From positions 81,711 through 102,417 of IMG/VR virus record IMGVR_UViG_3300022752_000033: a DNA stretch of 20,707 bases, one strand, 5' to 3'. The position numbers and the translations under genes were made by a program. Shown here in pieces: positions 2,470 through 20,041 of the stretch. Source of the DNA: a virus (lineage: Duplodnaviria; Heunggongvirae; Uroviricota; Caudoviricetes). Position 1 is the stretch's first letter. The number at the start of each line of letters is the position of its first letter. The notes under the pieces were generated by a model that was not told the origin of the DNA, ran no database searches, and saw only the letters and a list, made by a program, of their open reading frames with translations.

Positions 2470-4620
2470 TTAACTTAAACAATTTATTTCATAATCAATT
2501 AATAAATAAACTTTAATATTAATTGCCGCGATTGTACCATTAACAATATCTTGGTTATCAATATCACTTATAATAACTAACTTATTATTTAATTCATCAA
2601 TGATAACATTACCAACACCCTTAACTTTTAAAATCATTGATTTAATTGTATCCTGCCAAATATTATCACTTGGAGGCACAACCAATGAATTTGTAACATA
2701 AAAAGGTTCAATAACTTCAGTCCCGTATGGTTGTACCACCAATTTAGCACTGAATGTTGCAGATACTAAATTACAACCACTATTCCCATTAGTAACATCA
2801 TAATACCCCTCATTAAACATTTTTAGAATACTGTATTTTGCCGATGTATTAACATTAAACGTTTCCTCCGAAACTGTATATGTACTATAAGAAGAAATTG
2901 TGTTACTACCTTCAACCGTAACACTTCTTTCCGCATAATTTGAATTTGCATCAACTAAGGTCAATGTATATGTTCCGGCGGTTAAATTTTCCACCATATT
3001 TGTTTGTGGGTTATTTGGAATATTTGACGACCAATTAAACGTAAACGGAGGAACCCCCGCCATAATAAATGTTGTTATCGTACCCCCACTCGGTGTAGAC
3101 GCTATTGTCGGTAGCAAAGAAAAATTCACATTTGGTATATCTGTAACATACTCATTTGTTTTTTGTATACAACCATTATTATCGGTAACTGTAATATTAT
3201 ATTGACCCGACACGATATTTGTAAAGGTTACAGAACTTAAATAAGTGTTTAATATATCTATTTGTCCGTTATTTAACGAATAATTGTATGGGGCTGTACC
3301 ACCACTAGATATTGTTACCGTTATAGACCCATTTGCCAACCCAAATCTCGCACCAATTGAAGACGCGGATACAGTATATAGATTTTGACTAACTAACGTA
3401 TAATCCTGATTAAACGTGCAACCAACACTATCAATAACATATAGAGAATGTTCTCCACCACCCAAAAAAGAAAATAAATTATTTTGAGAGGTAGTTTGAA
3501 TTGATTTGTTATTCCCATCAGGGTAAATTAAAGTATATGTATATGGTGGAGTCCCTCCTTGTAAAAAAACAAACATTGACCCATTTTCATTAGAGCATCC
3601 CGGATTTGTCACATTAACATTTACCGATGTCATACCCTCAGGGGTCGCCAATAATGCAGATGCGGTTGCCGTACAATAAGCGGCATCCGTAACCAATAAT
3701 GAATAAGGCCCTGAAGATAAATCAGTTAATGTTAAACTAGTTGAATATGAAATCTCAAAATACCCGGTTGACGCCGAATAATAATAAGGTGGCGTACCTC
3801 CTTCAATATAAAAAGTTAAAGACCCATTATTTGTTAAACATGATGGCGGAACTGGTGTAACCAACGGTATAGTAACCGGACCAACATCTGTGATTGTCGC
3901 GGCAGATATCCTAGTACAACCCAAAGAGTCGGTTACATTAACACTATATAAACCACTCGTTAATCCCGTAATTGAACTACTCGTTTGTCCGTTACTCCAT
4001 ATATAAGTATATGGTGGAGTTCCGGTTTGTCCCGTAACAAATATCTTACCTAACGGCCCATTCCCACAACTTGAATTTGGAACAACATATAAACCATAAT
4101 CCAAATTTGTTGAAGGTTCAACTACAAAAGTATTAGTTCTACCCGTACATCCCCCTACATCCAAAACAACCATATAATAAGTTCCCGCTGTTAAATTGTT
4201 AAACACCCCAAAACTTGAATCCGTTATTGCCGACGATATAAAGTCGTTAGACCCACTATATAAAAAATAAGTTGTTTGTGAATATAATGATGATGAAGTA
4301 CCTGTTACCGAACCATTATTTAAACCACAAGTTGTATTCTGCACGTTATCTACATAAGCACAAACACCACTCGATAATGGTACAGACACCAATAAAGTAT
4401 TGTTTATAGGTAAACTACTATCGGTTATTTGAATCGAATATGTTCCGGAGTACAATAAAGTTCTCGATGAGTTGGTTACCAAAGCGTCATTACCTAAATC
4501 CGGTGTGAGCCAATTAACATTATATGGTGGGGTCCCACCATTAGGAACTATTAGAATACTTCCATCACCCGTACCCGAACAATCACCAACAACCGATATC
4601 GAATAAAACAAACTAGCCAT
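2470..4620 (-). CDS. SprB-repeat-containing protein (716 aa), putative adhesin/receptor-binding structural protein
   Basis: About 7 repeats of the form C..GS(I/V)....GGTPPY.Y.W/L....L..G.Y.V.V.D..GC (e.g. GTPPYTYIWSNGQTSSSITGLTSGLYSVNVTDSLGC) match the SprB repeat (PF13573) pattern. No signal peptide or obvious T9SS C-terminal domain is visible. Confidence 0.85.
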   Translation of the reverse strand: MASLFYSISVVGDCSGTGDGSILIVPNGGTPPYNVNWLTPDLGNDALVTNSSRTLLYSGTYSIQITDSSLPINNTLLVSVPLSSGVCAYVDNVQNTTCGLNNGSVTGTSSSLYSQTTYFLYSGSNDFISSAITDSSFGVFNNLTAGTYYMVVLDVGGCTGRTNTFVVEPSTNLDYGLYVVPNSSCGNGPLGKIFVTGQTGTPPYTYIWSNGQTSSSITGLTSGLYSVNVTDSLGCTRISAATITDVGPVTIPLVTPVPPSCLTNNGSLTFYIEGGTPPYYYSASTGYFEISYSTSLTLTDLSSGPYSLLVTDAAYCTATASALLATPEGMTSVNVNVTNPGCSNENGSMFVFLQGGTPPYTYTLIYPDGNNKSIQTTSQNNLFSFLGGGEHSLYVIDSVGCTFNQDYTLVSQNLYTVSASSIGARFGLANGSITVTISSGGTAPYNYSLNNGQIDILNTYLSSVTFTNIVSGQYNITVTDNNGCIQKTNEYVTDIPNVNFSLLPTIASTPSGGTITTFIMAGVPPFTFNWSSNIPNNPQTNMVENLTAGTYTLTLVDANSNYAERSVTVEGSNTISSYSTYTVSEETFNVNTSAKYSILKMFNEGYYDVTNGNSGCNLVSATFSAKLVVQPYGTEVIEPFYVTNSLVVPPSDNIWQDTIKSMILKVKGVGNVIIDELNNKLVIISDIDNQDIVNGTIAAINIKVYLLIDYEINCLS

Positions 4621-4623
4621 TCA

Positions 4624-7605
4624 TTAACAATTTACATTTATATTTATACCAACTTCTAACTTTAATAATTGTGACAAATAGAGCGGTTGGTTGGTTAGGT
4701 TTATAATTGTTAAGTCATTTCCATTTAAATTAAACCATAAATTATAATTTAATAATTGAGGTAAACTATTCTTTAACGCCAATTTCCATTCTCCATCACT
4801 TGGGTATCCATTAAGACCAACACCACTATAAAACTTATAATTAATCAATAAATTACTACCAATCGTCAAATTAACATACCACTCTGTAGTTAAACTATTA
4901 ATACCATTACAACTTGTAGTCGTGTATCCGTTTGATTGTAATAAAGTTCCAACTTGATTTCTCAATATTGCACTAAAGGATGATAATGCAGATTTTTGTG
5001 TTAACCACGGATATATCGGTACTGTTATTTTTTCCTCATTCGCACCATAATTTGATAAACTTGCAGTTCTAGAACAAGGGTCTACAAATTTTTCCTCAAT
5101 CGCACAACCTCTTTGTCTCCTATAAACGAATTTTTGTCTATGTAATACAGAATTTTCAAACCTCGTACCTCCCTGCCAAATCGTAGTTGCCGGAATCATT
5201 TGTTCCACCAATTTCATCCAATCAGGGCCAAGTCCATTTACATAATCAATAAGTTTTTGATACGTGTATTTATTATTTTGTGTCCCCGTATTTTGATATT
5301 GTTGTATATATTTCCAAAATAAAGATTGTAATGTTGGATATCCCCCGGTTTTTCCGTCCGTAATAAACTGACGATTTCTTGTGTTTATTAAATTTTGCCA
5401 AAAAGTTTGATTAAATTCAAAAAAAGTTTTGTTTTGTGGTTCGGGGTCAATAACCGTAGAATCCACACCACCCGGTACAGGGTATCCAATAGTTAAACCT
5501 GATTCGGGAATTGGGTATCCATATTTTCTTGATTGTTCCCAAATCTCATATGCCAATCCTTGACCCGGATTTAAAAACAAATCGATATTTTTTATATTGA
5601 GAACCAATTTTTCATTATTGATAAAATAATATGAATTGTAATTTGCATCTTTTGATGCCCTTAATTTATCATCTGTTGATATCCAAGATTTATTATTATC
5701 AATAATTCTGTCTAACCTAAAACCCTCATTCATATAAGGGAATTTTTTAAACACATTTAAATAGTCCTCACCATATGTGAATGGTTTTAATTGTGTTTGT
5801 ATATCTGTGTTTTGTCCCGAATATAATCTACTATTTATAACAAGTTCCTCGTTGTTTCTATGTTGTGGTGTTTGTTCGTACCATCCTGCACCTTTTTGGA
5901 AAAAGTAACTATCAGTTTCCGCAGGTGCCTTTGGATAACCAAATTCATCCACAGGATAATCTTTTCTTGTTAAAGTAACACTTTCGTATAAAGATTGATT
6001 TGTAAATGCCGTAAAGGTTTGTCCTTTAAGTTTATACGTTTGACCCACTTGCAATTGGGGTATTTGATTGACATATGTTCCTCCGGTTATTTGTGCGTAT
6101 TGATAATAGAAGTAATCCATATCAACCTCTCTATCCGCAACCTCTATATGCTCGTTATATTCAATTAACGACTCAGGAGCACCAATTAAATTTAATAAAA
6201 ATTCAATAGACCTCCTTGTTCCTTTTGACCTAAAAATATACCCTGAATTAAGTATTAAGTTTCTGTAAAAAGAATAGTTTAATTCTTGTGAGGTCAACGC
6301 CCTCGTATAACCAGGGTAGTTAGGTTTTACCTGAGCCCCAAATATTGTCTCTAAAAAATTATCATTTGTAATGGGTGAAAAATTTGACTGCCAACCAAGA
6401 GTCGACGCCAAATCTTTTAAAAGTTCGTTTGGTATATCATTTGACGGGTTGTAGTTAACCGATGTCATAAAACTTAATCCATCAATATATTTTTTAATGT
6501 CGTCAAAACTAACACCATAAATTTGGAATACCTTTTCAACTTTTCTCCCTAGAGTATCAAACTCTTTTAATGAACCCGCAGTTAAAAACCTCGAGATTAA
6601 ATTCGTTTTAAATGAATCAAATGCCTCACCGACCTCTTGTAGTATTGTTATATAATCATCAAATACCGCATTTCTAATATCTAGATTCCACGCCCCGTCT
6701 TTAGGCCATGTAACTTTTTGATTATTAATTGTTATTTTCCCATTATCTTGCTCTTGGGGTACTTTAAAGACCGCAGTATACTCCGGAATTACCAACCTAT
6801 TTAATAGAAAATTCTCAATCTCATCAAAAGTTTCCGCAAATACCTTATCAACAATATAGTCGTTAGGTCTAATTTGAAAATTTGTTGTGGATGTTGTTGC
6901 CGTAGTTCCAAATGGTGCCCCTGAAACATAAAATGCTATGTACCCAGAATATAACGCATCCGAGGGTAAAAAAGACTGAACCTTATATTCTAACCCTCCT
7001 ATTGATATCGCATAATCCAAATAAGTATTTGGTAAATTTCTATACTGAGAAATTGACATCTCCCTTCTAGCAATGTTTTGAGATGCATTTGTTGTATAAT
7101 CTATCTCAAATGGATTAAACAATCTTTTAGTATCCACCTCAAAATATGTTTCATCATTAATAGAATTATATGATATATTAACCGCCGTTGACCCGGTTGT
7201 AAAATCGGGTGTAAAGAACAAAGAATCTAAAGATGCCGGAAAATAATTAATTATTTTTGTTATTGATATTGCAAATCGTTTTGACAACGAACCATATAAA
7301 GCAAAATTCAATACTTGCGAATTATCAAATACAGGATAAACTTTAAATTGAGTTTTTTGTATTACCTTACTCTGAGCTATACTCGTTATGTTTAAATCCT
7401 CTAAATTAACCGGAGCAGAAAAAGCACCAATACCAAATTTTCTATTAACCTTATCTACAACATTTGAGGTAAACTCAAAGTTACCTTGCGTAAGTCCTCC
7501 ACCATCAACAATTTGTAAACCAACAATATTGTCGGAAAATGTTCCGGCACCGCTTCCGGGTCTGGGAGGATAAAAATATTTAGTATTTTTTATAGTTGTT
7601 GCCAT
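4624..7605 (-). CDS. Baseplate wedge protein with P2 gpI / T4 gp7-like core (993 aa)
   Basis: The central motif IPNELLKDLASTLGW...FYRNLILNSGYIFRSKGTRRSIEFLLNLIG (6181-6435) matches the L..LA..LG...KGT..(S/A)I...L pattern of gpI/gp7-type wedge proteins. It lies in a gp25/gp6 operon. Confidence 0.7.
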   Translation of the reverse strand: MATTIKNTKYFYPPRPGSGAGTFSDNIVGLQIVDGGGLTQGNFEFTSNVVDKVNRKFGIGAFSAPVNLEDLNITSIAQSKVIQKTQFKVYPVFDNSQVLNFALYGSLSKRFAISITKIINYFPASLDSLFFTPDFTTGSTAVNISYNSINDETYFEVDTKRLFNPFEIDYTTNASQNIARREMSISQYRNLPNTYLDYAISIGGLEYKVQSFLPSDALYSGYIAFYVSGAPFGTTATTSTTNFQIRPNDYIVDKVFAETFDEIENFLLNRLVIPEYTAVFKVPQEQDNGKITINNQKVTWPKDGAWNLDIRNAVFDDYITILQEVGEAFDSFKTNLISRFLTAGSLKEFDTLGRKVEKVFQIYGVSFDDIKKYIDGLSFMTSVNYNPSNDIPNELLKDLASTLGWQSNFSPITNDNFLETIFGAQVKPNYPGYTRALTSQELNYSFYRNLILNSGYIFRSKGTRRSIEFLLNLIGAPESLIEYNEHIEVADREVDMDYFYYQYAQITGGTYVNQIPQLQVGQTYKLKGQTFTAFTNQSLYESVTLTRKDYPVDEFGYPKAPAETDSYFFQKGAGWYEQTPQHRNNEELVINSRLYSGQNTDIQTQLKPFTYGEDYLNVFKKFPYMNEGFRLDRIIDNNKSWISTDDKLRASKDANYNSYYFINNEKLVLNIKNIDLFLNPGQGLAYEIWEQSRKYGYPIPESGLTIGYPVPGGVDSTVIDPEPQNKTFFEFNQTFWQNLINTRNRQFITDGKTGGYPTLQSLFWKYIQQYQNTGTQNNKYTYQKLIDYVNGLGPDWMKLVEQMIPATTIWQGGTRFENSVLHRQKFVYRRQRGCAIEEKFVDPCSRTASLSNYGANEEKITVPIYPWLTQKSALSSFSAILRNQVGTLLQSNGYTTTSCNGINSLTTEWYVNLTIGSNLLINYKFYSGVGLNGYPSDGEWKLALKNSLPQLLNYNLWFNLNGNDLTIINLTNQPLYLSQLLKLEVGININVNC

Positions 7606-10423: not shown

Positions 10424-12125
10424 CAATAAAAGGTTTAACAGGTTCGTTTATACCATCTAAGAAATTATTTGAATCTTTACCTTCAGGAAAAAATCTAAAT
10501 ATCACCTCTTGAAATGGATAATGTGATTTATTTACAAAGGGGAAATCAACCCCCCGACCCAACTCATCTCTATATCCATAAGTATACAGGTCTCTCCATC
10601 TAAATTCTTGGTCGGATGGAGAGTAATAAGAATAAAAAGGAACTTGGTCTACATTTTCAACTCCACCCGTCTCTATATAATTAGAAAAAACCCTTATCTT
10701 CATCCCGTTATGTGGACTATAATAAAACCCATTCTCATTTGTTGTTGGCGTATTTGATGTTTTAAAATTGTCTTGATTGTATTTTACCTTGTGGTAGTAT
10801 TTTGATATAACTCTCTCCACTTGCTCGTAATCATTCCATTCGCAAAAATCCCCCTCTATCACATCCCCAACATTTAAATTGTTATTATAATAAAAGGTTT
10901 TAGTATTACCACTAGAATCTGTTTTTGTATATGATGAAGTTTGAATATTTGTATTTGAATCAACATTATTATCATCCCACCACGAGCTCGGAGTTTCATT
11001 TATATTAAACTCCCACCCTTGTTTTAAACCTACCCCATTGATAAATGGTTTATTAAAATACCCGGAAAATCCTTTATTTACTACCGTCAAAAAAAGTTCA
11101 CTGACAGGTCTTTTTTGATTGTCTAACAACCCCTGTAAATTAATATCTTTTATTGTTGTAAACGTATAACAATTATTACTATTTTGTTGTGCCGTCTTAG
11201 TTCTCAAATCCGGAGTTATTGAACTCAAAAAAAGTTCTATTTTTGTATTAAATGGTGTTTGCTGAAATCCTGTTTTATTTAAAATCATATCATCAACACC
11301 AATTAAAACCTTATGTTCTCTAATATAATATTTTGAACGAGACTCATCTATTATATCAGGATATAAAACTCTTTTAAACCTTCCTCTTTTTTTGTCGTTG
11401 AATGTTCCCCCTGTATACCCAATGTTGTATAAATTAAAAATCCTAATATCACTCTCAAATAACCCATTACCTAACGAATAAACTTCAAAAATTTTATTTC
11501 CATTATATGGAAAAGATAGTTCGACAGATTCTCCCGGCGTTAATCCATGTGGAGAAATACACTCAAAAGATATTAACGGGTCACCATTTATTTGAATATT
11601 TTTAATTGCAAAAGGTATCCCATCCTTCACGTTCCAAATAAAAGTTTGATTATTTAGTTGTGATGTCAATAATTTATTTTCATCATTACGATATGGATAA
11701 GTAATATAATAAGACCAATTATACGTATACGCACTTTTTGATATAAAATTAATATGTTGGTCTACAACATTAGGTCTTAAAAAATCAAACTCATAATATT
11801 GAGGATAACCATACCAAGTACTCATATTATTTAAAACCGTTTGTTCCGGGTCTACCAAAAACAAATTATTTCTAAATGGAACATAGTTTGCGGTACCAAC
11901 ATATCTATTATCATAGATATAATTCAACTGGAACGTAGGTCTAAAAATCTCACAACTTTGCCTTTCATCATCATACAATTGTGATAACGATACTGTCCTT
12001 ATTCTATCAAATTCATTATTTAATTCGACAGTATTATTTAAACTAATAGCAACCTTTTGGTCTGTAGATGGTGCAGATTTATATCTTAATCTACTTGGTA
12101 CTATTCTCGAATCAAATTGTTTCAA
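10410..12125 (-). CDS. Hypothetical protein, likely virion structural (571 aa)
   Basis: Long aromatic/Asn-rich ORF. The TTG start overlaps the upstream stop by 14 nt, and the exact start is uncertain. Confidence 0.8.
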   Translation of the reverse strand: MKQFDSRIVPSRLRYKSAPSTDQKVAISLNNTVELNNEFDRIRTVSLSQLYDDERQSCEIFRPTFQLNYIYDNRYVGTANYVPFRNNLFLVDPEQTVLNNMSTWYGYPQYYEFDFLRPNVVDQHINFISKSAYTYNWSYYITYPYRNDENKLLTSQLNNQTFIWNVKDGIPFAIKNIQINGDPLISFECISPHGLTPGESVELSFPYNGNKIFEVYSLGNGLFESDIRIFNLYNIGYTGGTFNDKKRGRFKRVLYPDIIDESRSKYYIREHKVLIGVDDMILNKTGFQQTPFNTKIELFLSSITPDLRTKTAQQNSNNCYTFTTIKDINLQGLLDNQKRPVSELFLTVVNKGFSGYFNKPFINGVGLKQGWEFNINETPSSWWDDNNVDSNTNIQTSSYTKTDSSGNTKTFYYNNNLNVGDVIEGDFCEWNDYEQVERVISKYYHKVKYNQDNFKTSNTPTTNENGFYYSPHNGMKIRVFSNYIETGGVENVDQVPFYSYYSPSDQEFRWRDLYTYGYRDELGRGVDFPFVNKSHYPFQEVIFRFFPEGKDSNNFLDGINEPVKPFIDDCE

Positions 12126-15100
12126 CTCCTAAAAATTTAACTCTAAATTTATCCAAGGCATTACTACCTCTCGTTAAACCAAAATAAAAATGAAATGGCG
12201 CTCCCACTAAATACTTTAAATTCGTATTAGTATTTGGAAGAGGTCCAACCACGTTTTCACTAAAATCATATCCACCCGTATTATTCGCCCTAACATTATA
12301 TATAAATCCTTTATAAAATTCATTTATCGCAGTTTCACCCATAAAATAATAGGAATTAACATCTACCCTATCTAATGATTGATATCTCGTATTTTGTATA
12401 ATATCTTTTAATCCGGTTTGCCATTCATTTTTTTGGTCGCCAAAAATAAATGTAGACTGTTGATTAGGTGCTCCATTAATTTTCCATCTATAAAACGGTA
12501 CGACTTGTGAACTAAACCCTAAATTATCGTATTGTGCCGGTGAAGTTGTATCGTTTCTTATTATCCTTCTTGGGGTTATATAATCTCTTGTTTGAGTGTC
12601 CGAGGAATAAAATATCCCCATAACTTTATCCCCAATATAATAAGTGTTTCCACCGGTAGTTGTTCCCGTTGAATAGTCATACGAATCAAAATCAAACTCA
12701 TCCACACCATGTTCCGAGTTAACCGAAATAGATTGTGCGTAATCACCATCAAACCTGCTATTATTTCTTGAGAAGAATTGTGCCACACTTCCAGAACCTG
12801 TTCTTGTTAAATTACTGAAAAATCCTGAAGTTCTTAATCGAGATATTAAAAATAAATTTAATATATTTTCAAATTCCTTATACGATGTTTGTTCCATTTT
12901 ATCAACATTATATCCGTAATAATCCGCACTTAATGTTAACTGATATGCAAATTCATCTCTAGGACCTAAATTCATTATTGTTGTTGGGGTTTGTAATTGT
13001 AACGAATTTCTACCATTTCTTCTCACAGTGGTTCCTCCTTGAGATGTTGGGGCTTTACCAACAAATTTAATCTCCCCTGTAGTCGCATTTAAATTTGTTG
13101 GTGATGACCTATAATAAAAATTACTAGATGGGTTATGTAATATTATAGTATCATTACAATATCTATTATAAGGTTGATTTCTTCCCGCGCCTGTATTTCT
13201 AAAGAACCTATTGTTTTTAAATGTGTAAAAAAATAATGTACCATTTATCCAATTATTAACAAAATTATGTGAAAATATTCCTCTACAACTTGCCATCATA
13301 ACTCTAAATCTCGCCAACCACTCGGCAAATGTTCTATAATCTCTTGGTAAAGTAAGAAATGGTGCACCTCTTAAAAGAATGTAACAACCATTTTCCGCAA
13401 TAACTCTATCGTAACACTTATCTGTCGTAGGAGCCAGTCTAAATGTACTTCCATATCCCTGATAACATTTTAAAGGAACAATACCACTACAAGAAAATGA
13501 AGATTGTAATGAATTTTCAAATTCACTTGGTTCATCCTCTTGGTTATCTCCTGAATTATATCCGGTAGATTGTAATTCTCCTGAACCAATAATCGATGAC
13601 CCATTATCCGTAATACTATAAATTGCCAACGACCTATTTTGATGTAATACAAACGTATTATTCTCATATACATCTGTTCTATTTGATGATGATGGTAACC
13701 TATCACACCTCATCACAAGTCTCGTCTCCGAGCTTGAGAATGTTGTTGGAGTCGCACCTGTCGCATAAACCGGAGAAAAATAATAATAATCATTTTGTTT
13801 AATAATAGGATAAGTCACTACACCCCCCAATGTAGGTATAAAAGCCGAGTTCTCAGAAGATTGGTTTAAATAAACATAACTACCCCCCTCAACATATTCA
13901 TTATTATAATAACCTCTATGCTGTTTTGCGGGTCCTATGTCAGTTAAAACAAGATAATTGTTTGGATTGACTGAACTACTATACGCACCGGAATTAACAA
14001 ATCCCGGAGAATTTGATGATGGCACCTGACTTCCTAACCTTGGATATCTAATGAAATTAACAACATTATTTGGTCCCACACCTAAATACGAAGTATTATT
14101 ACTTACCCAAAGACTTTGTAGTTTCGTATTATTAGTAGTACTCTGATTAGTTGTATCAATACTAAAACTATTAACACTACTCCCATCTAAACTAGAATAG
14201 TTTGATGTGTTATATGTTGTAAACCCACTAAAATCACTAGACGTATTATAACAATACGGCGGATAAAATATATACCCGTTTTGACTTTGCGTGTTTGGTG
14301 AATTTATTCGATTATGTCTTGGTAAAGACAATCCCGGTTGTACCGGTATATTCATCTTATAATTACCGGAAACAATATTAGTCCCATAATTTTGACCCAT
14401 TAATTTTGAAATATCAATATCCATAGGAACTCTCGCAGAATATGGGTCAACGCCACGCATTAAAAATACAACAATAAATTCTTTTTGGTCTGGCATCGTA
14501 TATATTGGCCTAAACGTATCATCAGTATCATAATATTCCCCATCTCGAAATCCTAAAGTTGTGGTGAATTTTTTACTCCAAACGGTTTGAAAGTTATCTG
14601 TATATCTATATTTTAGTGAATTGAAAAATGGTATTGCTGGATTATTATATTTTCCATTAGGGATGGTAGGGTTTTGTGTAACAAAACTACCATACGTCGT
14701 CGCAGTAATTACTTGGAAATATTCAATATCAGTTGGAAACTTATGAGTAATAAAATGTTTATTACTATTAGGGGTATTCGCCGGAACAAACTCAGTATAG
14801 TTCGCCAAAATTGGTAAATTATTTGCCGGCGGGACATCAAAATTTAAAAATATATTACCCGTATTATATTCAACCGTTCCGGTTCCTCCTAAATTACTTG
14901 TTATCACCCCATTAGAATTATCCGTAAACGTCTCCGTAAATCCACTTATAGTTTGAGCGTAAACCACTAAAGTACCTTTTAATAATAAAGTATTTAATGA
15001 CAAACTAAAAACGGTATTTGAATCGTCACCATATTCTCCGGTTTGATATCCAACATTATCTTTAGTAGAAAAATCAATTGCAGAACTTTGGTCAACAGAA

Positions 15101-17646
15101 TATGTTGTAGTTAATGGTGTTAAATTGTTAGAGTTGGCCGGGTCCGCATATTTTATAGTTACAGAACCATTATTTGTTGCTGTACCCGTTATCGCATTTG
15201 TGGTAACAACATTACCATCTATATCAACATAACTAATTGTTTTTCCACTCAACACATTTAAATCATATGTCTCCGAAATATTATTGAAAGATATTAACCC
15301 TCCAATAGGAAAATTGTCAAGACAAGAATTATCAATCAATAATGCCATAACATTATCATGATGAAACTTTCCTGGATTTTGCTGAGGATTAATCGAAACT
15401 TTGATTTGATTATCTCCACCCCCCTGAACTTGTAAGTCATTAAAATATTTTCCCTTTAAATTAAATAAATTTAACCTCTCCGACAATGTTAAATCTTGAG
15501 AAAAGAACCCATTAGGTGCAGTACTATTGGTTGCCAAGTTTGGTGTTCTTTTTGAATACGATTCCTTCATTGAACCCGATAAATTTTGTTGCATCAGTTG
15601 TGCCACCAAATCAGCTTGATTTGCGGGTGCAAATAAATTATTACAAGGTGCGGACCCAACCCCCAATAAAAGAGGGTCATCTTTACAATATTGTTCGTCC
15701 GCAACATTAGCAAAACTTGCGGCGGATTGAGTATCTATAGTACAAGATTGAGATGCATTTGCATATGTCTCGTTAAAAAATTCTTCAGCTTCTGCATCAC
15801 CCTCTATAGGCTCAGGAGTACAATCACACATCTCACATTCAGGGTAGGTAATCATTGGAAATTTCATATTACTAAACGGATTACCCGCCTTTCTCCATAT
15901 CTCCCCGGGAGACATAGGTCTCGGACAATTTAAATCCGCCAACCCAAAAGATATCACATTTACAGCTTGACATAAAAGCCAAATAATTGGTAATATTACT
16001 GTGAAAATAATTACAATTTGTACTTTTATAATCGGCCATATTAATCTTAATAAATGTAATATAGGTACCAACGACAAAATTGGTGTCGTAAAAATACCCA
16101 AAATAAAATTAAATAATGTAAACAATATGTCCGTACCCCTAACCCCATCATTCATTGGAAACTTATAACTACTACTCTCACAACTCTGATTTTGAATATC
16201 TTTTATCCCAATAAATCTTCTTCTATTTGTACCTTTTTGATATAGGTCAATTAATTGTGAAACAGTATAAACTTGGTTATATTTTAACTCATAAAATTTA
16301 TCCTCACAATCAATCGCCCTTTGTATTATTTTATTACCTAAAGTTGTTCCAGTATCCCCATAATCATTCCAATCCAAACTAAAACCATACGACCTAATAC
16401 ACGCATCATAATATGGTTTTTCTGCAGGATTAGTTGGATTTAAATTTGCCGGGTCTTTCCCAGACCCCCAACCATATTCACTAACATTTGGAACTAAATA
16501 GTACGCCCTCTTTATTTGTTGTCCCAAATCATCCGGTTGTTTCCATTTAATTTTAAACCTATATTTACCCTTTGTTGGTATACCTACCTTTGGGTCGTCA
16601 GATATTACTTTTTCACCGAATTCATTAGTAATAACATAATCTAAGTTCATCGGCAAATCAACCAACCATGAACCATCATCCTCAATCACGTCATTACCAC
16701 CCGGAAATTTAAATTCTTCCAATATAGGTCTTCCTTGATTATCAATATTGATTGTTTGTCTAATACATACAATTTGTCCCGGACCCGCAACCAAACTACA
16801 CATCTCACCCAAAGCTTTCCTAGGCTTACACCTTCGATTAATAAAATTTTGGTCTAACGTTGATGTCATCGAACCCATAAAAAGTCCTGTAGGTTGGATA
16901 TCAATATTTAACTCGTCCCTTAAATCAAAATCACATCTGCTTATTGCAATTTGACAAGTTTCTTGGTCTCCCCATAATGGTACAACATCTATAGATTTTG
17001 TTAATGAAACAATTTGAGGTAACGAATTTAAATTAGTAGAAGACTTAAACTTAGGACCATTCACTTGAGATTCGGTCGCCCTACCCATTCTAATCAAATC
17101 TTGAGGAGTTAATGAAAATTCTCCCATGTCAGATAAATCTAAATCAAGAAAAACCAAACTAACTCCAAGAGGAGCTCCCATAATCATATAGTCACCACTC
17201 TCATTAGTCTTTACGACATATTTGTAATATTTGTCGTATATTTCAATGGCAGTTTTATTTGTTAATGCATCTCTTCTTGATGGGAATGTTCCTGTGGGTG
17301 TATGACCCGCATGTGATTGTTCGTATGGTAATAGATTATATCTATATCCATCCTCATTTTTCTCGTCCGGAGTTGTATACGGATATATACTCGTTATTAA
17401 AGGATTTGATTTGTCTTGGTCTGTAATTGGTACGAATACTGAAACTCGAGCGTTAGGTATTCCAAACCCATTGTTTGCAGTTATTCTTCCAACAATAACA
17501 CCATAACCAGAACATGATTTGGTGTAAATCTCTTCTTGCTGTATTTTTAATGATAGAATCTCTAAAAAATCAAAATCTTGTTCTAATTCAATATCAATTC
17601 TTTTATTAATTCCTATTTCAGTTCTTATTCTTTGGGTGGTTCCCAT
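12112..17646 (-). CDS. Large baseplate-associated protein (1844 aa) with predicted hydrophobic helical hairpin
   Basis: First gene after gp6. The N-terminal YGVIVGRITANNGFGIPNARVSVFVP resembles carboxypeptidase-regulatory-like beta domains. A hydrophobic stretch spans aa ~507-569, followed by YPECEMCDC. The remainder is S/T/N/G-rich. Confidence 0.8.
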   Translation of the reverse strand: MGTTQRIRTEIGINKRIDIELEQDFDFLEILSLKIQQEEIYTKSCSGYGVIVGRITANNGFGIPNARVSVFVPITDQDKSNPLITSIYPYTTPDEKNEDGYRYNLLPYEQSHAGHTPTGTFPSRRDALTNKTAIEIYDKYYKYVVKTNESGDYMIMGAPLGVSLVFLDLDLSDMGEFSLTPQDLIRMGRATESQVNGPKFKSSTNLNSLPQIVSLTKSIDVVPLWGDQETCQIAISRCDFDLRDELNIDIQPTGLFMGSMTSTLDQNFINRRCKPRKALGEMCSLVAGPGQIVCIRQTINIDNQGRPILEEFKFPGGNDVIEDDGSWLVDLPMNLDYVITNEFGEKVISDDPKVGIPTKGKYRFKIKWKQPDDLGQQIKRAYYLVPNVSEYGWGSGKDPANLNPTNPAEKPYYDACIRSYGFSLDWNDYGDTGTTLGNKIIQRAIDCEDKFYELKYNQVYTVSQLIDLYQKGTNRRRFIGIKDIQNQSCESSSYKFPMNDGVRGTDILFTLFNFILGIFTTPILSLVPILHLLRLIWPIIKVQIVIIFTVILPIIWLLCQAVNVISFGLADLNCPRPMSPGEIWRKAGNPFSNMKFPMITYPECEMCDCTPEPIEGDAEAEEFFNETYANASQSCTIDTQSAASFANVADEQYCKDDPLLLGVGSAPCNNLFAPANQADLVAQLMQQNLSGSMKESYSKRTPNLATNSTAPNGFFSQDLTLSERLNLFNLKGKYFNDLQVQGGGDNQIKVSINPQQNPGKFHHDNVMALLIDNSCLDNFPIGGLISFNNISETYDLNVLSGKTISYVDIDGNVVTTNAITGTATNNGSVTIKYADPANSNNLTPLTTTYSVDQSSAIDFSTKDNVGYQTGEYGDDSNTVFSLSLNTLLLKGTLVVYAQTISGFTETFTDNSNGVITSNLGGTGTVEYNTGNIFLNFDVPPANNLPILANYTEFVPANTPNSNKHFITHKFPTDIEYFQVITATTYGSFVTQNPTIPNGKYNNPAIPFFNSLKYRYTDNFQTVWSKKFTTTLGFRDGEYYDTDDTFRPIYTMPDQKEFIVVFLMRGVDPYSARVPMDIDISKLMGQNYGTNIVSGNYKMNIPVQPGLSLPRHNRINSPNTQSQNGYIFYPPYCYNTSSDFSGFTTYNTSNYSSLDGSSVNSFSIDTTNQSTTNNTKLQSLWVSNNTSYLGVGPNNVVNFIRYPRLGSQVPSSNSPGFVNSGAYSSSVNPNNYLVLTDIGPAKQHRGYYNNEYVEGGSYVYLNQSSENSAFIPTLGGVVTYPIIKQNDYYYFSPVYATGATPTTFSSSETRLVMRCDRLPSSSNRTDVYENNTFVLHQNRSLAIYSITDNGSSIIGSGELQSTGYNSGDNQEDEPSEFENSLQSSFSCSGIVPLKCYQGYGSTFRLAPTTDKCYDRVIAENGCYILLRGAPFLTLPRDYRTFAEWLARFRVMMASCRGIFSHNFVNNWINGTLFFYTFKNNRFFRNTGAGRNQPYNRYCNDTIILHNPSSNFYYRSSPTNLNATTGEIKFVGKAPTSQGGTTVRRNGRNSLQLQTPTTIMNLGPRDEFAYQLTLSADYYGYNVDKMEQTSYKEFENILNLFLISRLRTSGFFSNLTRTGSGSVAQFFSRNNSRFDGDYAQSISVNSEHGVDEFDFDSYDYSTGTTTGGNTYYIGDKVMGIFYSSDTQTRDYITPRRIIRNDTTSPAQYDNLGFSSQVVPFYRWKINGAPNQQSTFIFGDQKNEWQTGLKDIIQNTRYQSLDRVDVNSYYFMGETAINEFYKGFIYNVRANNTGGYDFSENVVGPLPNTNTNLKYLVGAPFHFYFGLTRGSNALDKFRVKFLGVETI

Positions 17647-17732: not shown

Positions 17733-19568
17733 TTACGAAAAACTAACCGACTGAAAATTCTTTACTGAGACCCTAATATCTTTATTTGGAAATCTTATTT
17801 GATAAACCTGACTCGGTTCGGCAAATAATGTGTCATCCACAGTTCTAATTTCTCTTGTCTCAGAATCTAAATAAGACATTGACGTTTCCGCAGATGAATA
17901 TTGACCTCCAACATTATTGAAAACTTGTAAATCCGTAACGGTTATAACTCCATTTTGACTTTGAATTAAACCTTTTATCTCAGAAAGAAAAACATTTTGA
18001 CCCAATTGTCTTGATGCTGGGTCCATATAATTTGATATGTTATTAATAATCTCAGTAATAATTTGTCCTGAATTTTGTGTTGCCTCTAATACTACCGAAA
18101 CTGTCATGGATAAATCAATTACGTCAGCACTTTTAACTGAGATATAATCATTCATCATTCTATAGTTGGATAAATAATTTGCAATATTTTGTTTTAGAGT
18201 GTTTGAAACTACGCTCGTTAACTTACCAGTAGTATCAAAAGATAAAATTTGAATATCTATTTTATTATCTATTTCCGTAATCGCAACTTTTGCAGGTGCC
18301 CCGAATTGTGCCGGCATAGTTCTTAAAAGAGAATCGTAATCCTGAACCGTAACCGCCCTTTTTTGTGCGGCAAAATTAAAAGAAACAAAATTTCTAACTT
18401 CTTCAGTTGTAGGAGCATTAGAACCACCAACCGCAGCAGTCACGTTATTACATCTTAAAGAACCAACAACAGACGTATTTGTTGCCTCCGAAGGTCCATT
18501 AACAAAAAATGAAACCGTACCTATTTGATTGATAACGTTTACCCCTAAATTAGTTTGCAAACCACCACCAATCCTATATTGTATAAATAATGTTGAATTA
18601 GGTGTTAACGTAGAACCAAGAGAAAAGTTATTAAAATATGTTTGCAAATTGAGTGGATTACCAAACCCTGTAAATTGGTTTAATGATTCCTGAGCCGAAT
18701 TTGTTCCTCCACCAAAAACCATTCTTTTATACCCCTCAGGTGTAAACTCAGAAATGAATCTATTATTTGTTTGAATATACTTACCAACTTTAGTGCCCGG
18801 TTGGTCGGAAACTTTTGTAGGGTCTTCAACAAATACTCTATCTTCCGCCAAAGCGTCTACTTCATACCATCTATTTTGAGCCCCTAAAAATTCCGCAGTA
18901 GTTGGTATATTACCATAGTCAGTACCATTTTTCAATAACACGCTTGTAATACCTAAAACATTTTTCTCAGGTAAAAATAACTCAAAGAAAGGTCTAACAT
19001 CACCAGCATTTATAATTCTCTTATAAACTTTTGTAATACCATTAACAACCAACTCTCGTTTTGTTATTGTATAATTTATTAAAACATTATTACTATTGAA
19101 GTTAGGTATCTTTAATCTATTGGGATATCCTTGAGAATTGTATGGACTAGCAAAATCTATGTCGTACACATTTTCAAATGCTTGTCCCGCACCTTGTATC
19201 TGTGAACCACGATACAAAATTCCAAGATATCTTTCATCCTCCTTATCCCCAAACGCAGGAACGGTTATTGAAAAATCAACAAGAGATACTGACGGTCTTA
19301 ATCCGGGAATCTTTAACCCATAGGTTCTGGCAATATTATATATTGAAGATTTTTGCTGAGCGTAAAGTAATACGGTTTCCTGTATACTCCTATCAATATG
19401 ATAGTGTAAGTTATCCGCAACCGCAGCGTTTAAATCCAAGAAAACTGAGAATACCGAAGCATCACTAAAATCTTGAATTAAATCGGGGTAATAAGCACGA
19501 ACATAATTATAAAGTTCCAACCTTATTCCTTCAAAATCCCTAACTGTATATGATATTTTTTTTGCCAT
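17733..19568 (-). CDS. gp6: Baseplate wedge subunit, T4 gp6 / baseplate J-like (611 aa)
   Basis: The N-terminal RDFEGIRLEL...FSDASVFSVFLDLNAAVADNLHYHID and the AAVGG...TTEEVR...FAAQKRAVTVQDY motifs are typical of gp6/J-family wedge proteins. It is adjacent to a gp25-like gene. Confidence 0.88.
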   Translation of the reverse strand: MAKKISYTVRDFEGIRLELYNYVRAYYPDLIQDFSDASVFSVFLDLNAAVADNLHYHIDRSIQETVLLYAQQKSSIYNIARTYGLKIPGLRPSVSLVDFSITVPAFGDKEDERYLGILYRGSQIQGAGQAFENVYDIDFASPYNSQGYPNRLKIPNFNSNNVLINYTITKRELVVNGITKVYKRIINAGDVRPFFELFLPEKNVLGITSVLLKNGTDYGNIPTTAEFLGAQNRWYEVDALAEDRVFVEDPTKVSDQPGTKVGKYIQTNNRFISEFTPEGYKRMVFGGGTNSAQESLNQFTGFGNPLNLQTYFNNFSLGSTLTPNSTLFIQYRIGGGLQTNLGVNVINQIGTVSFFVNGPSEATNTSVVGSLRCNNVTAAVGGSNAPTTEEVRNFVSFNFAAQKRAVTVQDYDSLLRTMPAQFGAPAKVAITEIDNKIDIQILSFDTTGKLTSVVSNTLKQNIANYLSNYRMMNDYISVKSADVIDLSMTVSVVLEATQNSGQIITEIINNISNYMDPASRQLGQNVFLSEIKGLIQSQNGVITVTDLQVFNNVGGQYSSAETSMSYLDSETREIRTVDDTLFAEPSQVYQIRFPNKDIRVSVKNFQSVSFS

Positions 19569-19573
19569 TATTA

Positions 19574-20041
19574 TTAAATATTTATTATTACAAAATCACT
19601 TTGAGAGAAGGTTGAAGAGTCTGTAGAATAATCAATCCTAATTTTTGCCGTATAGTCCGCAGTACCTTTACCCGGTACTCTAAAAATATATGGTAATTCG
19701 TCAGATTTTATATTTTGAGCCCCAATTGGACCTTCATCCTCAATACTCGCCGGTTCTATCGTTATACTATTAACAATTAAATTCGGCATAAAAGAATTTA
19801 TCGCGTCTCTAATATCTGTCTCTATTGCACTAAAAGTTAAATTATCAAAAGGTTCAAATATAAATTCATATATTCTTGTACCAAATGTTGGTAAATAATA
19901 ACGACTACCTCTTCTAGTTAAAATTAAATGTAATAGTGCAGCTCTAACTTCATCTTTTTGGAATTCCGTTAATTGTAAATAATCTCCTTTTCTAGAATCT
20001 CTAAACGGAAAATTTATACCATATGTTATACCTTCTGCCAT
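19574..20041 (-). CDS. gp25: Baseplate wedge subunit, GPW/gp25 family (155 aa)
   Basis: YGINFPF...VRAALLHLILTRRGSRYYLPTFGTRIYEFIFEP...IRDAINSFMPNLIVNSITIE is the gp25-family pattern, and the size fits. Confidence 0.9.
   Translation of the reverse strand: MAEGITYGINFPFRDSRKGDYLQLTEFQKDEVRAALLHLILTRRGSRYYLPTFGTRIYEFIFEPFDNLTFSAIETDIRDAINSFMPNLIVNSITIEPASIEDEGPIGAQNIKSDELPYIFRVPGKGTADYTAKIRIDYSTDSSTFSQSDFVIINI

Follow-up and report, generated by a model that had tools for sequence, protein, structure and literature searches.

A conserved hydrophobic block with a cysteine module in a large unnamed family of putative phage baseplate proteins

The stretch of DNA analysed here, referred to throughout as the window, comprises the final 20.7 kb (20,707 nucleotides, positions 81,711 to 102,417) of the 102,417-bp IMG/VR virus contig IMGVR_UViG_3300022752_000033, which is assigned to the Caudoviricetes and whose completeness is put at ~35% by CheckV. 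One gene of the window encodes a protein of 1844 residues, here termed the giant, which most likely serves as a structural component of the phage baseplate and which, to judge from the sequence of its neighbours, sits in the slot of the third wedge component (gp7/gpI). Here we show that the giant contains a long and almost uncharged hydrophobic block followed by a cysteine module, and that block and module together constitute a real, strongly conserved and uncharacterised feature of a very large family of proteins that has no name. A membrane-directed role for this segment is, in our view, moderately probable. How the segment might be used, and whether a helix that never meets lipid or an anchor acting during assembly would explain it better, is weighed below alongside the evidence that bears on each possibility.

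Results

The hydrophobic block

Two neighbouring elements of the giant carry the finding:

15937..16128, minus strand: hydrophobic block, aa 507-570, with a predicted helical structure and a hydrophobicity of membrane grade, as described by Kyte-Doolittle and shuffle statistics, column statistics, an AlphaFold2 model, periodicity and spacings
15820..15927, minus strand: cysteine-bearing linker, aa 574-609, with C574 (in NCP, 87%), P597, Y601 and the invariant C604-x-x-C607-x-C609

The interval 15820-16128 on the minus strand corresponds to residues 507-609 of the giant. A preliminary description made from the sequence alone had reported a nearly charge-free segment at residues ~507-569, set in an otherwise polar and beta-rich chain, and had interpreted it as a membrane-type helical hairpin. 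The segment proved to be as quoted, with only two charged residues among the 64 at positions 507-570 (R535 and K541) and a mean Kyte-Doolittle (KD) hydropathy of 1.97, the rest of the giant averaging -0.48 with 17.9% charged residues. This value lies beyond anything obtained by shuffling: the top score for 64 residues among 2000 shuffled versions of the giant was 1.31. Windows of 19 residues remain above 1.6 without a break over residues 506-572, and the highest of them (2.71, at residue 544) is the maximum of the whole 102-kb contig. Among the other structural proteins of the window the 19-residue maximum is 1.42 or less, so that the segment is unique among these proteins, which lends support to a role at a membrane. 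As regards the surrounding chain, the AlphaFold2 model bears out the description as beta-rich over residues 45-465.

Insertion propensity was estimated as a crude, position-independent sum on the Hessa translocon scale. By this measure residues 544-562 score -1.1 and are the only part of the giant to fall below zero, the first half of the block scoring +1.6 or higher. When the same sum was applied to 133 full-length homologues, two segments passed in 66 of them, one in 55, three in 1 and none in 11. Simple membrane-propensity scales rate the segment as membrane-grade, and the family, with its more than 1000 clusters, has kept the hydrophobicity; on neither count was the idea of a membrane segment refuted.

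Conservation was followed in 120 listed close homologues and in 136 more diverse representatives. The block has the same position in every one of the 120, and a hydrophobicity window above 1.8 lies within residues 400-700 in 130 of the 136. It is preceded by a near-invariant F496-P497-x-N499-D500 motif that closes the N-terminal region, and the conserved columns here are D500 (100%), D506 (98%), R/K520 (58%, with P521), H531 (98%), P538 (82%) and C559 (90%). N499 and H531 are separated by 32 residues in 186 of 189 sequences, and the next cysteine, C559, follows H531 at a distance of 28 residues in 94 sequences and of 29 in a further 29. A pair of 4-residue indels that seemed to lie within the block was dismissed as an alignment artefact, the H531-C559 distance being 28 in both subfamilies.

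The second half of the block behaves differently from these fixed points. Across columns 539-570 the commonest residue accounts for just 20-45% of sequences and the mean hydrophobicity is 3-4 on the KD scale; hydrophobicity that is kept while the sequence drifts is the pattern expected of lipid-facing helices. The length of the block ranges from 19 to 114 residues (median 61), with the variation lying beyond C559, and nine representatives carry extra Gly/Ala-rich hydrophobic segments (for example P0187, P0192 and P0208). Together with the absence of the block from two distant relatives (L012 and L016, described below), this variation in length and these added segments are hard to square with a load-bearing core helix.

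Helix shape and the hairpin question

An AlphaFold2 model of residues 1-720, built from the 120-sequence alignment (pLDDT 73.5), shows residues 507-565 as a single continuous helix (pLDDT 74-88) that is flanked on both sides by low-confidence linkers, at residues 465-506 and 597-616, a setting that lends support to a role at a membrane. Hydrophobicity averaged over the family has a sharp peak at 100 degrees per residue, with an amplitude that none of 5000 shuffles reached and a phase that holds within ~70 degrees across all 66 positions. The model and this coherent periodicity point to a single long helix bearing a narrow polar stripe, whose less hydrophobic positions include Y509, N513, R/K520, Y524, H531, A534, N560 and N563; over 18 turns, hydrophobic residues cover approximately three quarters of the surface of the helix. 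Mutual information among 75 non-redundant blocks identified only i+3/i+4/i+7 pairs and subfamily markers, and an anti-parallel hairpin pattern was not seen in this sample, which is too small to exclude a hairpin. The hairpin proposed in the preliminary description has thus not been borne out.

These results bear directly on an alternative in which the segment is a buried structural helix that never meets lipid and is packed inside the assembled baseplate, either with two gp6-like subunits or with copies from neighbouring wedges. The prediction of one straight helix with no hairpin, the single stripe that stays coherent over 66 residues and the strictly fixed N499-H531-C559 spacing all count in favour of such an arrangement, and there is a parallel in TssG, a helical region of which (~55 residues) forms a three-helix bundle together with two TssF subunits (PMC6300606). 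However, the extent of the hydrophobic surface exceeds what a three-helix bundle can bury, and neither the poor sequence conservation of the second half nor the wide range of lengths, the Gly/Ala-rich additions and the absence of the block from two relatives is readily accommodated. A complex predicted from two copies of residues 1-120 of the gp6-like protein and residues 490-720 of the giant received a score of 0.00, without controls, and speaks neither for nor against binding. Weighing these points with the comparison to T4 gp7 given below, we consider a buried helix rather unlikely, if still a serious contender.

The shape of the segment is equally relevant to a second alternative, that in the course of synthesis the segment enters the inner membrane of the host as an even-numbered helical hairpin, leaving both flanks in the cytoplasm, so that baseplates would be built on the membrane and any role in infection would be secondary. 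The giant has no signal peptide and has large soluble domains on both sides of the segment, which allows only a hairpin or a monotopic topology. This is in keeping with an assembly-time anchor, as are the positively charged residues at the candidate turn (R535/K541 in the giant, a lysine before GP in most homologues) and the finding that half of the homologues possess two segments with a favourable insertion sum. Nevertheless, a tailed virion must eventually leave the membrane, for which there is no known extraction mechanism, and lipid is not expected in the particles. Moreover, neither the co-variation nor the model gave a hairpin signal, and the contig is that of a lytic-type large phage with replication genes and not of a cell-anchored injection system. 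An anchor of this kind is accordingly an unlikely explanation.

The cysteine motif

C-terminal to the block lie NCP, at C574, and YPECEMCDC, at residues 601-609, both of which the preliminary description had picked out. C604, C607 and C609 are invariant in all 120 close homologues and the CxxCxC pattern is kept in 112 of the 136 representatives; more distant members have just YPDCxxC, or have lost the motif. The confidence of the AlphaFold2 model is below 50 over residues 597-616, which include the motif. It is a reasonable guess that C574, C604, C607 and C609 form a cluster at the base of the helix, as a putative metal site or disulfide clasp.

A large family without a named member

A word-indexed search returned at least 1799 homologues of the giant, all of them annotated as 'hypothetical' and none with Pfam domains, and an exhaustive profile search with residues 1-720 returned 1185 clusters at 50% identity, 863 of which had E <1e-30. 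The family is spread over marine, freshwater and rumen assemblies, and there is no cultured, named or solved member among its clusters, which number at least 1185; the names of ten clusters all read 'hypothetical protein'. For the giant itself there was no Pfam or PHROG match at E up to 1 and no PDB match by profile search. Searches of 50,697 phage records by tblastn, with the full giant and with residues 1-500, found no relative, and a search of the ESM Atlas by features found no characterised one. With two distant family members as tblastn queries there was either nothing or merely a match to the C-terminal repeats in a 642-kb uncultured phage.

In the distant homologue P0293 the giant itself ends (residues ~1295-1514) in SprB repeats and a BiPBP_C-like domain, which suggests that the C-terminal part faces the host. 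In the window the SprB repeats lie on a separate protein of 716 aa (2470-4620). Within this clade, adhesin modules seem to be exchanged among baseplate proteins.

Two distant relatives retain the N-terminal domain and FPxN but have no hydrophobic block (L012:2813-5111, 766 aa, and L016:7962-10062, 700 aa). They lie on contigs binned as Wolfebacteria and Paceibacterota metagenome-assembled genomes (MAGs), respectively, and may be natural 'module-less' forms of the protein. Family members are also present on long contigs of a Prochlorococcus single-cell genome (L011, 84 kb), a rumen Bacteroidales MAG (L013, 287 kb) and a Paceibacterota MAG (L016, 363 kb). These three contigs are probably large phage genomes that were binned as cellular, and they therefore give little information about hosts.

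Gene order around the giant

The genes on which the assignment to the baseplate turns are as follows:

12112..17646, minus strand: gene for the giant (P0001, 1844 aa), from the list of open reading frames and its translation; its family has no name and comprises 1185 or more clusters at 50% identity
17733..19568, minus strand: gp6-like gene for a baseplate wedge protein (611 aa, Baseplate_J), next to the giant on its upstream side; PF04865 at 23.6 bits (cutoff 21.1) and phrog_219 at E 1.4e-19
19574..20041, minus strand: gp25-like baseplate wedge or sheath-initiator gene (155 aa); PF04965 at E 4.9e-10 and phrog_261 at E 2.6e-16

Every long open reading frame of the window lies on the minus strand. 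In the direction of reading, an endonuclease VII/HNH gene is followed by the gp25-like gene (PF04965), the 611-aa gp6-like gene (Baseplate_J, phrog_219) and the gene for the giant; 3' of the latter are genes for proteins of 571, 267, 358, 301 and 993 aa that match no family in Pfam or PHROGs, and then the gene for the 716-aa SprB-repeat protein. A longer copy of the same phage has genes for a 5'-3' exonuclease, DnaB helicase and ribonucleotide reductase upstream of gp25.

The succession gp25-like, gp6-like, giant is kept in the window, in contigs L002, L003 and L004 and in the contig of P0293, where it persists despite different neighbours. The longer order of DnaB, ribonucleotide reductase, gp25-like, gp6-like and giant is seen again in two other contigs, one of 155 kb whose giant is 45% identical and one whose giant is very distant. 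By gene order, then, the giant occupies the gp7 slot; it is this order that would connect it with the baseplate, and the order is stable.

That gene order is what assigns the giant to the baseplate, and that no structural homology to any tail protein was detected, would also be consistent with a protein that is not a tail component, namely a non-virion membrane protein encoded within a late structural operon and engaged, for example, in modification of the host envelope or in superinfection exclusion. However, the slot after gp25/gp6 is conserved in very divergent phages, the size of the giant, its beta-sandwich modules and the SprB repeats are typical of tail or fibre proteins, and there is no signal peptide by which such large domains might be exported. 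We regard a function outside the tail as highly improbable.

The two adjacent genes differ in their conservation. The gp6-like protein (17733-19568) is 78-100% identical across the top 120 of at least 6956 matches and the giant (12112-17646) is ~45-55% identical to most of its listed homologues, the gp6-like neighbour being far more conserved, which indicates that the two genes evolve at very different rates. Further downstream, the 993-aa protein (4624-7605) has a weak match (27% over 107 aa, E 2.5e-6) to a 1336-aa protein of Microcystis phage Mel-JY01 and a 1265-aa protein of Flavobacterium phage immuto. These matched proteins are located three genes after gp6 and correspond weakly to the 993-aa protein, not to the giant; the shared segment suggests a conserved downstream component of the baseplate or of a fibre.

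The remaining domains of the giant

Outside the block and the cysteine-bearing linker, three further regions of the giant can be delimited:

16156..17646, minus strand: conserved N-terminal region, aa 1-497, made up of a disordered but conserved stretch (aa 1-44), beta-sandwich domains (aa 45-465) and the FPxND end
15577..15795, minus strand: small helical region, aa 618-690, with AlphaFold2 helices at 618-630, 642-656, 666-672 and 678-690 (pLDDT ~75-84 over 640-690)
12112..13509, minus strand: strongly conserved C-terminal domain, aa 1380-1844; its invariant columns include six cysteines (model pLDDT 68.5)

The beta-sandwich domains at residues 45-465 are modelled with a pLDDT of 75-93. Residues 45-250 resemble the transthyretin/carboxypeptidase-regulatory fold in a VIA search (1qmu_A, Z 7.6, rmsd 2.0 Å over 79 residues, 27% identity); PF13620, the corresponding Pfam family, does not reach its cutoff of 32.3 bits in homologues (21.3 bits) and is absent from P0001. 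Otherwise, fold searches with the N-terminal model returned just generic beta-sandwich, pilin and long-helix matches. A model of residues 1290-1844 (pLDDT 68.5), which covers the C-terminal domain, had no match in the PDB (Foldseek), in VIA wide or in BFVD, and the domain, whose motifs include NNWINGTL and GAPFHFYFGL, may represent an undescribed fold.

Discussion

The reading that we favour is that the giant is a baseplate protein of the virion whose hydrophobic module is shielded until it enters the host envelope at infection, a real possibility that nonetheless falls short of probable. According to this model, the N-terminal beta-sandwich region probably docks the giant to the wedge formed by the gp6-like and gp25-like proteins, and the long and variable C-terminal two-thirds, which in some relatives includes adhesin-type SprB repeats, would point outwards; the repeats of P0293 fit an outward-facing protein that contacts the host. 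Between these two parts lies a module of fixed geometry in which FPxND is followed after 32 residues by the invariant histidine and after a further 28-29 residues by the conserved cysteine. We envisage the module as a long helix of membrane grade with one narrow polar stripe, possibly kinked at the conserved prolines and closed by the cysteine cluster (C574, C604, C607 and C609), which probably serves as a metal or disulfide clasp. The module would stay shielded within the assembled baseplate until rearrangement of the baseplate on the host surface exposes its copies, which would then become buried in the host outer membrane. Either the baseplate would thereby be locked irreversibly in place, or the envelope would be loosened or opened around the tip of the tail. 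It should be noted that the presence of the giant in the virion, its copy number, the shielding of the module, the target membrane and the timing are all elements that we infer, and that the segment is likewise only presumed to insert into a membrane or to form a pore. Insertion at the time of infection is preferred here since it fits a lytic virion better and has a precedent in the tape measure proteins.

A more elaborate version can be put forward only tentatively, and we consider it doubtful. In it, several helices, each held by its cysteine clasp, would form an insertion device carried by the baseplate in the phages of this large uncultured clade; on being released by a conformational switch of the baseplate they would embed in the outer membrane as an anchor or as an oligomeric opening, by a route separate from that of the spike and the tape measure protein.

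Several points weigh against insertion at infection. A straight helix of 60-65 residues would measure ~90 Å, which is far beyond the core of a bilayer, and the first half of the helix is marginal for insertion, containing Pro, Thr, Asn and His and, in 58% of homologues, R/K520. Nor is it obvious how several copies of so hydrophobic a segment could be kept shielded within a particle that is soluble. Alpha-helices do not usually insert into an outer membrane containing lipopolysaccharide, and T4 gp7 is an example of a wedge protein that has a stretch resembling a transmembrane (TM) segment but for which entry into a membrane is not known. Among the most distant members (subfamily P0278-P0288) the position of the block is taken by a charged amphipathic helix of 27-47 residues, which suggests that the ancestral role may have been in protein-protein packing and which also counts for a buried helix. 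Finally, that the giant is part of the virion is itself a presumption, and sequence, profile and fold searches detected no homologue among the baseplate and membrane-active proteins that have been characterised. Of the original proposal of a membrane component of the injection device, the membrane-grade character and the conservation of the block have thus been upheld, the hairpin form has not, and the proposal as a whole is supported in part.

In current models of contractile-tailed phages the membrane-active parts are the spike and the tape measure protein, and the periphery of the baseplate serves as a soluble sensor and trigger. In the family described here, with its more than 1000 sequence clusters, a module of membrane grade is encoded in the slot that belongs to a wedge component. 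If the module enters a membrane, this would amount to a new step of infection in an abundant group of large phages. If instead it is a buried helix, TM predictors would be mislabelling a recurrent element of baseplates, as may also apply to T4 gp7. With either outcome the family merits a name and a structure.

Comparison with known systems

The third wedge component is represented by T4 gp7, P2 gpI, Mu gp48, TssG of the type VI secretion system and the gp7-like part of Afp12/Alg12, and the giant shares with all of these its slot, directly after the gp6-like gene that follows the gp25-like gene. T4 gp7 is also large and multi-domain, and TssG also has a long helical element (PMC6300606). Alignment of the family profile with T4 gp7 by hhalign gave a probability of 0.1, and there was no Pfam or PHROG match to gp7, gpI (Tail_P2_I), Mu gp48 or TssG; Foldseek and VIA, queried with the modelled residues 1-720 and 1290-1844 (pLDDT 73.5 and 68.5), returned no gp7, TssG or gp6 chain. 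The gp7, gpI and TssG families diverge beyond sequence detection (PMC6300606), and the lack of similarity is for this reason compatible with membership of the giant among them.

The preliminary description had started from the premise that wedge proteins are normally soluble. This is not fully right, since T4 gp7 (gene 7, L006:5061-8156) contains at residues 886-904 the 19-residue stretch VGFGFIAITLLTMFINVGL, with a KD value of 2.07, which RefSeq labels 'predicted integral membrane domain'. That annotators took this stretch of a wedge protein for a membrane domain counts in favour of the idea that the block of the giant is a buried helix. However, the stretch in gp7 is short and near-invariant as far as Aeromonas phage Aeh1 and Vibrio phage D479 (RFVHPVGFxF...LT..IN.G), a pattern opposite to that of the block, and no similarity between the giant and gp7 was detected. 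The element of the giant is three times longer than that of gp7, varies in length and sequence, is sometimes absent, and is situated in the first third of the protein and not near its C-terminus.

The nearest cultured relatives as judged by gp6 are Flavobacterium phage immuto, whose wedge protein is 27% identical to the gp6-like protein of the window, and Microcystis phage Mel-JY01, to which an uncultured 484-kb phage can be added. In these the slot after gp6 is filled by an unrelated protein of 369-420 aa, and there is no hydrophobic block nearby; hhalign comparison of the family profile with the two proteins after gp6 in Flavobacterium phage immuto gave a probability of ~0.1 for each.

Membrane-grade helices in a tail protein of contractile phages are likewise found in the tape measure proteins (TMP_TM at residues 207-246 of T4 gp29, candidate helices in P2 gpT). 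The hydrophobic segments of the T4 and P2 tape measure proteins are stored out of contact with water and have been proposed to enter the host membrane at infection, once the tail has contracted (bioRxiv 10.64898/2026.03.06.709160; bioRxiv 10.64898/2026.09.14.750843). Tape measure proteins are, however, all-helical and lie in the lumen of the tube, and their genes accompany those of the tube and the chaperones, whereas the giant is mostly beta-rich, has large folded domains on both sides of its segment and is encoded in a wedge slot; its beta-rich residues 45-465 and its place after gp25/gp6 do not fit a tape measure protein, the gene for which would be expected between the tail tube/chaperone genes and the hub genes. 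Bacterial contractile injection systems, whose membrane anchors include CisA of Streptomyces, are resident in the cell and stay anchored in their producer, in contrast to the giant, which is encoded on a large phage contig together with DnaB, ribonucleotide reductase, a 5'-3' exonuclease and endonuclease VII.

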